From: a virus
Lineage: Duplodnaviria; Heunggongvirae; Uroviricota; Caudoviricetes
DNA: 7,370 bases
Strand: one strand, 5' to 3'
Virus record (IMG/VR): IMGVR_UViG_2703718811_000008
Location: 1 to 7,370 of that record
The position numbers and the translations under genes are program-made. Position 1 is the first letter of the stretch, and every line of letters begins with the position of its first letter. Shown in pieces: positions 965 through 6,507 of the stretch. The notes beneath the pieces are model-generated. The model made no database searches and was not told the DNA's origin. It was given only the letters and a program-made list of their open reading frames with translations.

Positions 965-1038
965 TGCCCCTGCCATGTTTGAACCGGCGACCTGGCGGTT
1001 ATTAACCGCTCGCTCTGACCATTAGGGCTAAAGGGGCA
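965..1038 (-). tRNA. Degenerate tRNA-like element (possible pseudo-tRNA), no CCA encoded
   Basis: RC of 965-1038 = TGCCCCTTTAGCCCTAATGGTCAGAGCGAGCGGTTAATAACCGCCAGGTCGCCGGTTCAAACATGGCAGGGGCA. Perfect 7-bp acceptor-like stem TGCCCCT/AGGGGCA, T-loop-like GGTTCAAAC, anticodon-like loop TTAATAA (nominal AAU). But the D-stem has a mismatch, there are 3 nt between acceptor and D-stem, and the T-stem has a G-A pair. Sits 4 nt from tRNA-Arg. Confidence 0.35.
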
Positions 1039-1309
1039 ATAAGTTTCTTTAAAAACAGCATGCATATGCCTGCTATATAATCCATACTAACTTTTATTAA
1101 AAACAAATTCAACAAAATCAAGGTTAGCGATACTTCTTTATCTAATAGCAACATTAATTACTATTGTGTGATTTTGATGATACTCCCTATTAAAAAACTC
1201 TTCCATTAGCACAATGAGTGCTCAGCTATCTATTGAAATAAATGAGCACAAGAGGTATACATATCTCCACAGCAGACATTCTATCTAAAAGATCACAAAA
1301 ACAGACATC

Positions 1310-1657
1310 ATGATAAAAAATATTTTTATAATAATTTCAAGCATCCTCTGCATGGGGCTAATTGTGGAACATCCTCAAATCGACAGTGAAATATCGACAA
1401 ATGAAATAATCAATTGCCTTTCCAAGACAATTCAAGAAAGTGGTTATATAATGGATCTCAACGGCACCAAACCACCAATTAATGCAAAAGAATTCGCAAC
1501 ATATAGAATGTCAAAATACACCGGCTCATTCTGGATAGAGTATTCAACAGAAGGAAGACCAACAAGGAATGTTGGCATAATAAATGCAACAAATGATAAT
1601 TATAATACTTTGAATGATGCGTTACAATTTTGTATTAATAACATGACGAAATATTAA
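1310..1657 (+). CDS. Hypothetical small secreted or membrane-anchored protein (115 aa), AT-rich cargo gene
   Basis: ORF-track ORF; N-terminus MIKNIFIIISSILCMGLIV looks like a signal peptide or TM anchor; rest is hydrophilic and Asn/Thr-rich. Very AT-rich compared with the phage backbone. No strong SD before the ATG. No family recognised. Confidence 0.5.
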   Translation: MIKNIFIIISSILCMGLIVEHPQIDSEISTNEIINCLSKTIQESGYIMDLNGTKPPINAKEFATYRMSKYTGSFWIEYSTEGRPTRNVGIINATNDNYNTLNDALQFCINNMTKY

Positions 1658-1853
1658 CATCAACAATTAATATGTGTACATCCCCGTGAGCAAACCGTTC
1701 GTAATACCAGTGAGCAACAACAGCATGCGCTCCAACGTCTGAACGGCTTCGCCCATATGATATGGTTCAGCACATTAAAACGTTTACGCATCACGATTTC
1801 AATATCAGATGCCAGGCGATGTCCACAGAACAGGTAAAGACTTCCGGCTGGCT

Positions 1854-2013
1854 TTAACTACCCGACATAACGAGCTGGGTCAGTATTAACTGGCAGCGTT
1901 CGCGTGAAAGGTAAGTACTCTGCGCCATCTCCCCGACTGTCGCCGGGTCGTTAACACTTAATTCATTAAATAACACTCTGGCGGTTTCAGTCATATACGG
2001 CTGTTTCAGCATG
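1854..2013 (-). CDS. Small helix-turn-helix-like ORF (52 aa), possibly a truncated regulator remnant
   Basis: ATG at 2013..2011 with AGGGAAAAAG upstream; translation MLKQPYMTETARVLFNELSVNDPATVGEMAQSTYLSRERCQLILTQLVMSGS. The segment TVGEMAQSTYLSRERCQLILTQL has the pattern of an HTH recognition unit. The longer track ORF 1854..2195 is rejected because its extension contains a terminator hairpin. Confidence 0.35.
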
Positions 2014-2135
2014 TCTTTTTCCCTATTCCGGTTAACGTGACACACCAATAACTCTTGTCGAAAAAGCCAACAAGCTGAAAGACCGGTATTCACCACCACC
2101 AGCGCGTTTACTGAACTACTGAATGTTACAGACAT

Positions 2136-2165
2136 AAAAAAAGCCAGCCACAGGGGAAGGCTGGC
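2136..2165 (-). terminator. Rho-independent terminator (minus strand) downstream of the CPBP gene
   Basis: Stem GCCAGCC (2143-2149) / GGCTGGC (2159-2165), 9-nt loop; on the minus strand it is followed by T7 (RC of A-run 2136-2142). Confidence 0.55.
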
Positions 2166-2559
2166 AAACTCGTAGGGCAAAATGCTGTTACGCAAACTTC
2201 GTTACAGGGATATCCTGCAATACCTAAAATACACAACATTTAGACAACTACACAGTACCTCACTAAACTTTTAAGATTTTGTTATTAAATACAGTTATTC
2301 ACACTCTTACCTGATACGCAGTAATGCCCGTCTGGCCATGTAGAGTAACAACAGTCCGGGCAATGACAATCCATAGACACAAAAACCGCCCGCAGGTGGA
2401 TTTAGCAGTTTGGTACAGTAACCACTTTTAACATCATATTCTATAATTTACGTACGTAAATGCTTTACTACTCATTTTTAACCATTAATGGAGTGAATAT
2501 TATCCAGTGAGCCGTAAACCCCGTTCTTCAGGGCGTGGAGGATGTCAACAACAACATGT

Positions 2560-3378
2560 TCAATGATTTTTTAAGAATGGATAGGTAAAAAATAACAGGT
2601 GGCACAAATTCAACCCAAAATGAAAAAATGTAGCAACCCATAAGCGTCCACTAAACATCCATGCCATGCCATAAATCACTCCAGATAACATTGCAAACAG
2701 TACAAGTAACAAACCACCAGAATAATGATAAAGACCAAACAAAACTGAAGCGATAAACAATGCTACAAATGGATGTACAATCATAGAAAGACGCTGCTGA
2801 AGATATCCTCTGAAAAATGCTTCTTCAGCAAGAGAGACAAAAAACAAGTTGCTCAATATAAACTTTGGCAACCACTCCGGGAAATGAACCTCTGGTTTTA
2901 TTCCACCCAGTAAAACAGCTAAAACCAAAATAAATGGAACAGATAAAAAGAGCAAGGCCCACATTCCATAAGATACTTCGTACCTGAAATCGCTCTTAAA
3001 CAACCTGGGAAAAGATAACACCAATAAAAATGGCACCATGGCCTTATCAAAATTAAAATACATGGTGTATGGCGTACTAAACGGCCCGGTTATTACAGAA
3101 TTCAAAACCACAGGGTTATGAAAACCAGGCCAAAAGTGATATAGCAGCACAACAGATAATACAACTAAACAACTCTCCGTAACAATTCTACACCATGATT
3201 TCTGTGCCCACTTAACTTTTAACCAATACAATAGCCCAACGATTGTAAAGAGACCAAATGCCGGCCAATCTATAACTCCATTAGCGACACCCAAAACAAC
3301 AGATGCTATTAACAATAACAAAGAAAACAGTTTATATGCATTCAAACTTAGCAAGGATAAAGCCAGAACGCCCCACAT
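2560..3378 (-). CDS. CPBP-family (CAAX protease / Abi-type) intramembrane metalloprotease, 272 aa
   Basis: ATG at 3378..3376 with GGAGG about 6 nt upstream (RC of 3379-3395 = TTTTTGACGGAGGTTTT). Polytopic hydrophobic protein with the three CPBP motifs in order: EExxxR (AEEAFFRGY), FxxxH (FGLYHY), HxxxN (HFGLN). Gene is strongly AT-rich. Confidence 0.85.
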   Translation of the reverse strand: MWGVLALSLLSLNAYKLFSLLLLIASVVLGVANGVIDWPAFGLFTIVGLLYWLKVKWAQKSWCRIVTESCLVVLSVVLLYHFWPGFHNPVVLNSVITGPFSTPYTMYFNFDKAMVPFLLVLSFPRLFKSDFRYEVSYGMWALLFLSVPFILVLAVLLGGIKPEVHFPEWLPKFILSNLFFVSLAEEAFFRGYLQQRLSMIVHPFVALFIASVLFGLYHYSGGLLLVLFAMLSGVIYGMAWMFSGRLWVATFFHFGLNLCHLLFFTYPFLKNH

Positions 3379-3423
3379 AAAACCTCCGTCAAAAACAAAT
3401 CATCCCAAGATAACAATAACCAT

Positions 3424-3452
3424 TTATAATACAACTGTCATTTACAATGCAA
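3424..3452 (-). promoter_or_regulatory. Candidate sigma70 promoter for the CPBP gene (pR'-like late promoter or moron promoter)
   Basis: On the minus strand: -35 TTGCAT (3452..3447), 17-bp spacer, -10 TATAAA (3429..3424); about 45 nt upstream of the CPBP ATG, in the AT-rich Q-CPBP gap. Confidence 0.3.
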
Positions 3453-3495
3453 TGCTTACTACTCGTAAAAAATATAATAATAGTCAGAATCCTTC

Positions 3496-3519
3496 CTAGA
3501 TATTGCATGCAATATCTAG
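3496..3519. promoter_or_regulatory. Perfect 24-bp palindrome overlapping the Q stop codon; candidate protein-binding site
   Basis: CTAGATATTGCA|TGCAATATCTAG is exactly self-complementary; no U-tract on either strand, so not a classical terminator; overlaps the last Q codons and its TAG (3516-3518). Confidence 0.4.
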
Positions 3520-3901: not shown

Positions 3902-4897
3902 TCAGGCCAGCACGCCAATTGCCAGCGCACGATCGATAAAACGAAATATCAGCTCCAGTTGGGAGCCATACTTTTCTTCAAATGCCACGGTATCCGCATG
4001 CAGCTCGTCGTGATGCTTTCTGCACAAAGGCAACACAAAAAGGTCATGCGCTTTTGTACCCATTCCACCCTGACCGTGGCCTATCAGGTGGTGGGGATCA
4101 TCAGCAGGCTTTCCACAACATGCACACGGCTGTGTCTTAACCCAGCGCGTGTACTTTTCATTAACCCAGCGGTGACGTTTTGGGCGTAACATAAAAGACT
4201 CCGGCGACTCCGGATCCACTTTCAGCGCCAGCACCTTTTTCGCTTTATCCTGGATGATGCTGGTGGCAGGAACCGAAGGAATAAGGTCACTTTCCCGGGT
4301 GACAGACGACACAACAGGCTTCGGTAATCTCAGTGCCTTACGGGCTGCACTTTCCGGTAAGGCATCCGCCAGGTCATTACGAACCAGCCACCAGCACAGT
4401 TCAGGCATTGTCACAACGTGACTATCATCAAAACCGAGATCCCGACGCACGACAGACAACACCCAGCGGGCACAGTTATCCGTTGCCATTGATTCCAGCC
4501 GTTCCGTGAACTGATCGCGCAGCTGGTTATCGCAGTGCCAGCACAGACGGATTGCGCCCGGCGCGTGTCGCATTGTGGTCATGTTCTCGCTGTGCCAGTC
4601 GGAATGAGGCCACTGGCAGCCTTTTTCACGAAGTAACCAGCTTTCAAGACATTCCACGCCACCAGCACGACGGATCACTGCCTCATTGCGGAACACGGCC
4701 CGAACGGCAGGATCATCCGCCAGCGGTTGTGATGCCGCCGGAACAGCACCACTGGCGAAAGATGAATAACGTTCCGGCTCAGGCTCCAGCAGGACACGCC
4801 CCTGCATAAACAGGGGCATCAGCTCTGAACCTGGCCTGAACAATACGATCCCCATACGCGGGGCAATTTCAGGGGTCAGTAGTGCTCTCACGGTCAC
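3902..4897 (-). CDS. DUF968-like prophage protein with C-terminal Cys/His (HNH-like zinc-binding) motif; YdfU-like position directly upstream of Q
   Basis: 331-aa ORF, stop TGA at 3902-3904. C-terminus [43 protein letters not shown] has C-x2-C...HH...PLC..HH...H spacing. Start uncertain: GTG at 4897, GTG at 4891 (better SD GAGG) or internal ATG. Confidence 0.75.
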
Positions 4898-5727: not shown

Positions 5728-5955
5728 TCAGGCGGCTGCACCCGCCGTTTTCTCGTACTTACTGATAGTGATCTCGACCTTCCCTCCCGGGATAACCGGT
5801 CCCCACTCCACCAGCATTCTTTTCACCTGACTGTCGTCTTCCCACACACCCGCGTGGGTCAGGGCGTCAAACAGCGCCTTGTTATAGTTGTCCAGATCGC
5901 GGATCCGGTTATCCCAGCATGGTTGCCACCTCCTGATTGGTTGGCGGAAAGCCAC
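5728..5955 (-). pseudogene. rusA: RusA Holliday-junction resolvase, C-terminal part only (5'-truncated)
   Basis: Frame translates to ...DNRIRDLDNYNKALFDALTHAGVWEDDSQVKRMLVEWGPVIPGGKVEITISKYE, matching the RusA C-terminal catalytic half (RRRDLDN...DALTKAGFWLDDAQV...GGRLELTITE as recalled). The frame is closed upstream, and the roughly 60 N-terminal residues expected for RusA are absent. The track's start is a GTG, and RusA-like sequence begins near 5915. Confidence 0.6.
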
Positions 5956-6019
5956 GCTCTTTCTGGTAAGAAATCAGCATATCCAGCACCTGCTGCTGGC
6001 ATTGAGTTAACGTCGTCAT
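5909..6019 (-). other. 36-codon ORF resembling the N-terminal start of a LexA-type DNA-binding domain; probable remnant at a mosaic junction
   Basis: ATG at 6019..6017 overlaps the TAA of the upstream gene (TAATG). Translation MTTLTQCQQQVLDMLISYQKERGFPPTNQEVATMLG aligns without gaps to LexA residues about 4-36 ([33 protein letters not shown], recalled), then hits TAA exactly where RusA similarity begins in the +1 frame. Confidence 0.3.
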
Positions 6020-6507
6020 TACGCCCCCACGTAATTCCCTGACAGATACCACTCATCACCCGATACAGCGCGCTTGCTGCTTTTCCGTAAACACTGCTCA
6101 CGACGCGCCAGAAAATTGTTTCGTTCTGGCTGGGAGTGGCTTTCACGGAATGCCGCCATCCACACGGTTGCAGCACGACGGTATAAGCCCCTGGACTCCA
6201 GTTCTTCAGCCTGGCGGGTCAGGCACAAAATCACCCGTGGATCGTTAGTGCCGACATAGAAATTGCGCACAGGTCTGGTTTCACGAACTGGTTGTGGTTC
6301 CGGCTCCTGCGCTCTCTCAGTCAGGCGCGGGAAATGTCTGCGTGTATCTCCTTCACAACGGTGAGCCACACGCCCACTCTGACGTAACTTGCTTGCTGAC
6401 TGCAGAACGCGCTGCCGTGAGTAACCTGCAAAAGCCTCCGCAATGTCTCCGGAAGTACACCCCGGATGGGCTTCAATGAATTTCTGAACGTCATTCAAAA
6501 GACTCAT
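6019..6507 (-). CDS. PerC-like transcriptional regulator with N-terminal winged-helix-like region (162 aa)
   Basis: ATG at 6507..6505 overlaps the TGA of the upstream replication gene (ATGA) and has GGGGGGG upstream. C-terminal LESRGLYRRAATVWMAAFRESHSQPERNNFLARREQCL matches the recalled PerC/Pch signature (LEARGLWRRAAARW...RRRKHCL). Confidence 0.65.
   Translation of the reverse strand: MSLLNDVQKFIEAHPGCTSGDIAEAFAGYSRQRVLQSASKLRQSGRVAHRCEGDTRRHFPRLTERAQEPEPQPVRETRPVRNFYVGTNDPRVILCLTRQAEELESRGLYRRAATVWMAAFRESHSQPERNNFLARREQCLRKSSKRAVSGDEWYLSGNYVGA

Follow-up and report, generated by a model that had tools for sequence, protein, structure and literature searches.

The LexA-like and RusA-like gene fragments that abut in this E. 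coli prophage very probably (at about 0.93) mark a deletion scar, in which 421 bp between two copies of GGATA have been lost and two pseudogene fragments left behind. The scar lies within a 7,370-nucleotide stretch of DNA, analysed whole and called the window here. A sequence-only reading had described a 36-codon open reading frame (ORF), resembling the start of LexA, that abuts a 5'-truncated rusA, and had taken the pair for a mosaic junction. We propose instead that one illegitimate recombination event between the two GGATA copies, within a single prophage, removed the 421 bp, presumably by microhomology-primed template switching or end joining. After such an event the LexA-like frame would run into a TAA made by the junction, giving a 36-aa stub without a recognition helix, and the remaining 61 rusA codons would be left out of frame and without a start. 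Judged by what each retains, neither fragment is predicted to be functional.

The window is the early-right (nin-like) region of an SfII/e14/CPS-53-type lambdoid prophage (Table 1). Its closest match over the whole length, 98.9% identical, is found in prophages of two bovine E. coli strains, including OkiPb01678. The tRNA-Arg/tRNA-Gly pair also occurs in the closest relative, and its arrangement is that of Stx-type phages. The ancestral gene order would have been O-like, PerC (yfdN), an optional dam, a 108-aa LexA-domain gene, rusA, KilA-N, DUF968 and Q; the dam cassette, located between PerC and the LexA-like gene, is cleanly present in some relatives and absent from others. Downstream of Q, positions 1000-3500 form a block of low GC content (0.33-0.42, against ~0.52-0.58 elsewhere) that looks like a moron region and contains the CPBP/Rce1-like protease gene together with an unassigned plus-strand 115-aa ORF (1310-1657) with a hydrophobic N-terminus. 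On the minus strand (1723-1857) the same prophage bears a second scar of decay, the remnant of a DNA methyltransferase gene that the annotation of the closest relative marks as incomplete on either side.

Table 1. Features of the window around the deletion junction and downstream of it
Feature	Window positions	Strand	Remarks and evidence
O-like replication gene	7340-6504	minus	cut by window end
PerC/yfdN gene, 162 aa, intact	6507-6019	minus	ORF list; Pfam PerC E=1e-9; yfdN/PerC in relatives
LexA-domain remnant	6019-5909	minus	codons 1-36 plus junction-made TAA; Pfam LexA_DNA_bind
Deletion junction, lone surviving GGATA	5914-5910	minus-strand reading	alignment with L001
rusA remnant	5913-5728	minus	codons 69-129 plus stop; translation; Pfam RusA
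KilA-N domain gene, 269 aa, intact	5708-4899	minus	Pfam KilA-N E=2.9e-27; gene order identical in relatives
DUF968/HNH gene	4897-3902	minus	
Antiterminator Q	3899-3516	minus	
CPBP/Rce1-like membrane protease gene	3378-2560	minus	
tRNA-Arg(TCT) and tRNA-Gly(TCC), adjacent	960-808	minus	downstream of Q

The LexA-like ORF begins at ATG 6019-6017, which overlaps the PerC stop codon (TAA, 6021-6019) to form the TAATG coupling that the sequence-only reading had reported. That reading had all the elements in place, but its end coordinate of 6021 takes in the PerC stop codon; the ORF as such occupies 5909-6019. Its product, 36 aa long (MTTLTQCQQQVLDMLISYQKERGFPPTNQEVATMLG), ends at TAA 5911-5909 and passes the Pfam LexA_DNA_bind profile (PF01726) with 31.1 bits against a cutoff of 23.7, covering profile positions 1-36 of 65 only. 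The gapless match that had been claimed to the start of the LexA DNA-binding domain is borne out, with the first 36 residues corresponding to LexA residues 2-37 (helices 1 and 2). The intact phage homologue is a 108-aa protein (327-bp gene) that aligns to residues 2-70 of the LexA DNA-binding domain structure 1lea. Compared with that winged-helix domain, the remnant shares helices 1 and 2, after which it ends, and has lost recognition helix 3 and the beta-wing, so that a complete winged helix is not present. Part of the LexA-like gene has indeed been lost, as had been proposed, but the missing part is 72 codons of a 108-aa gene that encodes a DNA-binding domain and no peptidase domain. The S24 self-cleaving peptidase domain is absent even from the intact 108-aa relatives, in which PF01726 stands alone, and the intact protein therefore has a LexA domain without being a LexA repressor in the SOS sense. 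The 108-aa 'LexA family' proteins of SfII, Stx2 and e14-like phages are likewise DNA-binding domains without a peptidase, unlike LexA.

The rusA remnant opens at GAT 5913-5911 in the +1 frame (DNRIRDLDNYNKALFDALTHAGVWEDDSQV...), reads DNRIRDLDNYNK...EDD... and stops at 5730-5728, so the LexA-like ORF ends where RusA homology begins one frame over, just as had been noted from the letters alone. It passes the Pfam RusA profile (PF05866) with 46.3 bits against a cutoff of 22.8, covering profile positions 76-123 of 124 only. The DLDN...DD motif said to be kept is visible in the translation, and RDLDNYNK...EDD of the remnant aligns with RDLDNLQK...LDD of the E. coli RusA structure 1q8r. Work by Bolt and colleagues in 1999 reportedly identified D70, D72 and D91 as catalytic residues of E. 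coli RusA; K76 is listed with the catalytic acidic residues of that enzyme. Intact RusA has 129 aa in relatives of the window (390-bp gene) and 120 aa in 1q8r, to which the intact phage protein aligns end to end (residues 3-120). These lengths exclude the idea, which the sequence-only reading had offered as a way to overturn it, that full-length RusA is naturally only about 75 aa. Measured against the full polypeptide of ~120-130 aa, the remnant holds 61 of 129 residues, with residues 1-68 gone. The native start of rusA is deleted, and the sole in-frame start upstream is GTG 5955, inside the LexA-like remnant; a 75-codon ORF from this GTG does span the rusA remnant in the ORF list, and our look-up returned no record of its 75-aa product as a called protein. 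Set beside the RusA resolvase (E. coli DLP12 rusA/ybcP; PF05866; 1q8r, 2h8c), the remnant shares the C-terminal half and the acidic motifs but is out of frame and lacks residues 1-68, which makes it a pseudogene fragment and not a member enzyme. A perfect Chi octamer, GCTGGTGG, is present within the remnant (5808-5815, minus strand); further Chi sites lie at 2096, 4388 and 4659 in the same orientation and at 4259 in the opposite one.

Alignment with intact relatives, the check that had been suggested for locating the break point, places it between two GGATA copies. In a global alignment with L001 (NZ_AP022120, a locus without dam), the window lacks 421 bp in one gap and otherwise differs by 4 mismatches over 501 bp (~99% identity). 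The gap takes out LexA-like codons 37-108 and RusA codons 1-68, in agreement with the earlier proposal that recombination had removed the RusA N-terminus. GGATA occurs at both native end points, and the window keeps one copy (5914-5910), the pattern of a microhomology deletion. On the left the native context is ...ATGCTG-GGATA-CCGTT (...CTGGGATA/CCGTT, a slash marking the break here and below), with GGATA at codons 36-37 of the LexA-like gene; on the right it is ...TTCCTCC-GGATA-ACCGG (...CCTCCGGATA/ACCGG), with GGATA at rusA codons 68-70. In another locus, L166, a one-base insertion at rusA nt ~197 (TTTCCT/TCCGG) adjoins this partner site.

In intact loci the LexA-like gene and rusA are separate and overlap by ATGA, an arrangement annotated in E. 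coli WP5-W18-ESBL-11, phage SfII, Stx2a phages and OkiPb01678. The 501-bp region has matches in 2,672 of 5,426 complete E. coli genomes, 2,125 of the 5,426 with at least 80% query coverage at one place, and among the matches listed it always appears as 2-3 joined pieces that span 922 bp (no dam) or 1,572 bp (dam). Since the flanks are ~99% identical to loci in which both genes are intact, the resemblance of the fragments to LexA and RusA is not due to chance.

The same comparison bears on whether the junction could be a module boundary, acquired by mosaic exchange with a phage whose own LexA-like ORF and rusA are naturally short. Lambdoid phages are mosaic, and the clean presence or absence of the dam cassette speaks for such exchange. 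One intact locus, however, matches both sides of the junction at ~99% identity and has the missing piece as precisely the stretch between them, and the break points fall inside conserved domains and not at gene boundaries. We consider exchange highly improbable; of the mosaic junction first proposed, the scar stands and the exchange between phages gives way to one deletion inside a single prophage.

The deletion also explains the reading frames. Because 421 = 3 x 140 + 1, the LexA-like frame meets the junction as GGA-TAA, and what is left of rusA is shifted by +1. That the two frames abut exactly at TAA, +1 apart, could suggest a programmed +1 frameshift yielding a LexA(1-36)-RusA(69-129) fusion protein, which the sequence-only reading had rightly held to be the less likely alternative and to which we assign a negligible chance. 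The 3n+1 deletion wholly accounts for the offset and the exact abutment, so that no frameshifting mechanism is needed, and ~2,000 related genomes carry two separate, complete genes. As we read the sequence, GGA-TAA-C gives no cognate re-pairing for a +1 shift, and the fusion product would have neither the LexA recognition helix nor RusA residues 1-68.

The deletion allele of the window is rare. Its junction is absent from K-12, no single-piece junction occurs among the top matches listed from complete E. coli genomes, and searches for the exact junction as a 25-30-mer found nothing in genome, viral or metagenome contig collections. These results would fit an assembly or sequencing artefact, in which the source is really intact and 421 bp were lost in assembly. 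Against this, a look-up of the 36-aa product recovered the same deletion in an independent Logan contig, L004, seen in 3 samples; the exact-junction searches came back empty owing to a one-SNP difference from L004. This contig carries the dam cassette upstream and differs from the window by SNPs 48 and 39 nt to the left and 2 nt to the right of the junction; the rusA alleles AACCGG and AACAGG both occur in intact genes. The same junction on another SNP background means that the deletion exists outside this assembly, and it probably arose at least twice, to judge from these linked differences. L004 moreover comes from an unrelated run and was assembled on a de Bruijn graph, a procedure by which junction k-mers cannot be invented; the 5-nt repeat is much too short for assembly collapse, and colinearity and orientation are kept across the flanks. 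An artefact is thus very unlikely, and we retain the deletion as the reading of the junction.

As such the scar is ordinary prophage decay, a further instance of an already known process. The cryptic prophages of E. coli K-12 offer examples of this erosion in the yfdM-yfdL pseudogenes of CPS-53/KpLE1 and in those of e14. Like the microhomology deletions that erode cryptic prophages, the one in the window is colinear, lies between short direct repeats and truncates two adjacent genes, and here too a further mark of decay, the methyltransferase remnant, is nearby. It differs from other cryptic-prophage deletions in that its left end point is apparently common to many independent deletions.

This left break point, GGGATA/CC, falls after nt 110 of the LexA-like gene (window 5910-5915, minus strand; L001 3236-3243). 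No fewer than 12 further deletions, whose partners differ, use it (L005-L011, L036, L040, L044, L050 and L171), with 0-5 nt of microhomology. The look-up of the 36-aa product accounts for part of this picture: besides the window-type junction, it found the identical stub joined to seven other downstream sequences (two KilA-N sites, a Q-like gene, an HNH gene, Nu1/terminase, the baseplate region and a tail gene), all by colinear deletion. This look-up detects only junctions that read GGA-TA-R, and the collection is very large, so that alone it is no proof of a hot spot. Break points at many other positions are likewise seen in LexA-like proteins that are chimeric or truncated; in a large protein collection we found proteins truncated at other codons, many of which are contig-end partials at SNP positions.

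All of IMG/VR was scanned, at each of five successive positions, for loci that first depart from the intact sequence there; this returned no junction for GGGA/, one for GGGAT/ (L050), three for GGGATA/ (L040, L036 and L044), none for GGGATAC/ and one for GGGATACC/ (L171). A scan with variable left partner added one right-anchored deletion, which comes from PerC and ends exactly at /CCGTTCAG (L167). The background rate comes from 119 loci, an unbiased sample retrieved through a gene-start anchor; over 416 kb of alignment it shows four other unique homology breaks, or ~1e-5 per nucleotide per locus. With IMG/VR estimated to hold ~1,300 loci (35 TAT-allele loci in total, 3 of them in the sample), this rate predicts ~0.07 junctions at the five scanned positions, and at most ~0.8, where 5 were observed. 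The native partners share GGATA, GATA (twice), ATA, ACC, TA (four times), A, T or nothing with the site. All left-anchored events fit a break at T/A, most microhomologies end at the A of GGATA, and A(1-3)CC directly follows the junction in 8 of 13 partners, echoing the ACC of the site.

Complete genomes gave another picture. A 220-nt query centred on the site matched 2,242 records in complete RefSeq E. coli, 11 of them only partially; none of the 11 is truncated at nt 110-126, and the one inspected breaks at nt 71. A 56-nt query centred on the site gave no partial-only record in the same set. The L011 junction was not found in complete genomes, and a metagenome scan returned five intact TAT alleles and no junction. 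The IMG/VR and complete RefSeq results disagree at roughly p = 0.02.

The repeated left break point may accordingly reflect nothing more than huge databases and a search limited to GGA-TA-R, a reading to which we give a little less than an even chance. It draws on the built-in bias of the 36-aa look-up, on the scatter of break points among LexA-like chimeras, and on the complete RefSeq and metagenome results. It has to contend with the IMG/VR scans, whose five left-anchored junctions have different partners, with the right-anchored junction at the same bond, and with an expectation that stays below one event even in the worst case. That GGGATA/CC is a true hot spot is plausible, with at best an even chance; that it is a site-specific fragile point of this prophage family, where recurrent one-sided deletions are a preferred route of decay, we put forward more tentatively, as a minority view. 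The starting event at such a point would be a nick, a break or a stalled polymerase that recurs and leaves a 3' end near ...GGGATACC. Downstream, often at A(1-3)CC, this end would prime synthesis anew with the help of 0-5 nt of microhomology, and the outcome would be numerous independent, one-sided deletions ranging from 0.4 to >20 kb. The A(1-3)CC pattern suggests that the 3' end near ...GGGATACC pairs with a bulge.

The cause could be a sequence-specific nuclease, or a protein at the CTG-N10-CAG motif on which the break is centred. This motif, CTGGGATA/CCGTTCAG, resembles the core of an SOS box, with symmetry limited to 3-nt arms, and has four sites in 6.9 kb against ~2 expected; we regard it as a weak lead. 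Searches of the literature returned no description of a GGGATA/CC site.

A number of other causes were considered and set aside. Insertion and later excision of an IS element does not fit, as no IS ends occur in any event locus; the IS629/IS1203 copies of relatives are sited in the O-like or PerC genes and not at the break point. DNA folding at the break is unremarkable (z = -0.01), which removes a hairpin or cruciform, and there are no long repeats at the site. Of the alleles, only the rare TAT one has an EcoRV site, and such sites are missing at the partners. Quasi-sites of a DNA invertase were rejected because the junction sequences misfit a crossover after ACC, and Chi because the perfect octamer in rusA is 520 bp off and none is close to the break. 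Type I-E CRISPR targeting would require loss in the other direction, and the positions of the gyrase consensus, of EcoP15I/EcoP1I sites and of phosphorothioate GTTC sites do not match. Rpn nucleases were discounted, being reported as non-specific (PMC5350276).

Several further rearrangements were seen in related loci. In L167 (1458-1599) the junction with PerC reads ...CACGCCTG/CCGTTCAG. This locus and the protein P0114 derive from different deletions that both exit PerC after ...RHFPRL, the former joining the GGGATA/CC site and the latter LexA-like codon 13, and this point in PerC may be a second reused break point. A 395-bp deletion joining the O-like gene to the C-terminus of PerC occurs in four IMG/VR loci, L040 (2938-3891), L117, L121 and L156; in L040 it is combined with the deletion from GGGATA/CC into a tail-fibre gene. 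In L007 (3654-5101), an e14-like prophage in which a serine invertase adjoins the tail-fibre genes, the O-like gene and PerC form an inverted segment with respect to dam and the LexA-like stub. The 26-mer GGTGGCAACCATGCTGGGATATACGG occurs in both L176 (1208-1229) and L177 (1667-1688), metagenome contigs with no relation to the prophage. Over its first 22 bases it agrees with the LexA-like gene in its TAT allele, which is probably a coincidence or the mark of a distant homologue.

The scar means that both ORFs are to be annotated as pseudogene fragments, and that this prophage has lost a resolvase and a small DNA-binding protein. In itself it matters little, and wider interest is confined to the possibly recurrent break point. 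If the hot spot is true, E. coli prophages would have in GGGATA/CC a natural site at which illegitimate recombination strikes with nucleotide precision, and from it one could learn how cryptic prophages are eroded and what produces defined DNA ends in vivo.
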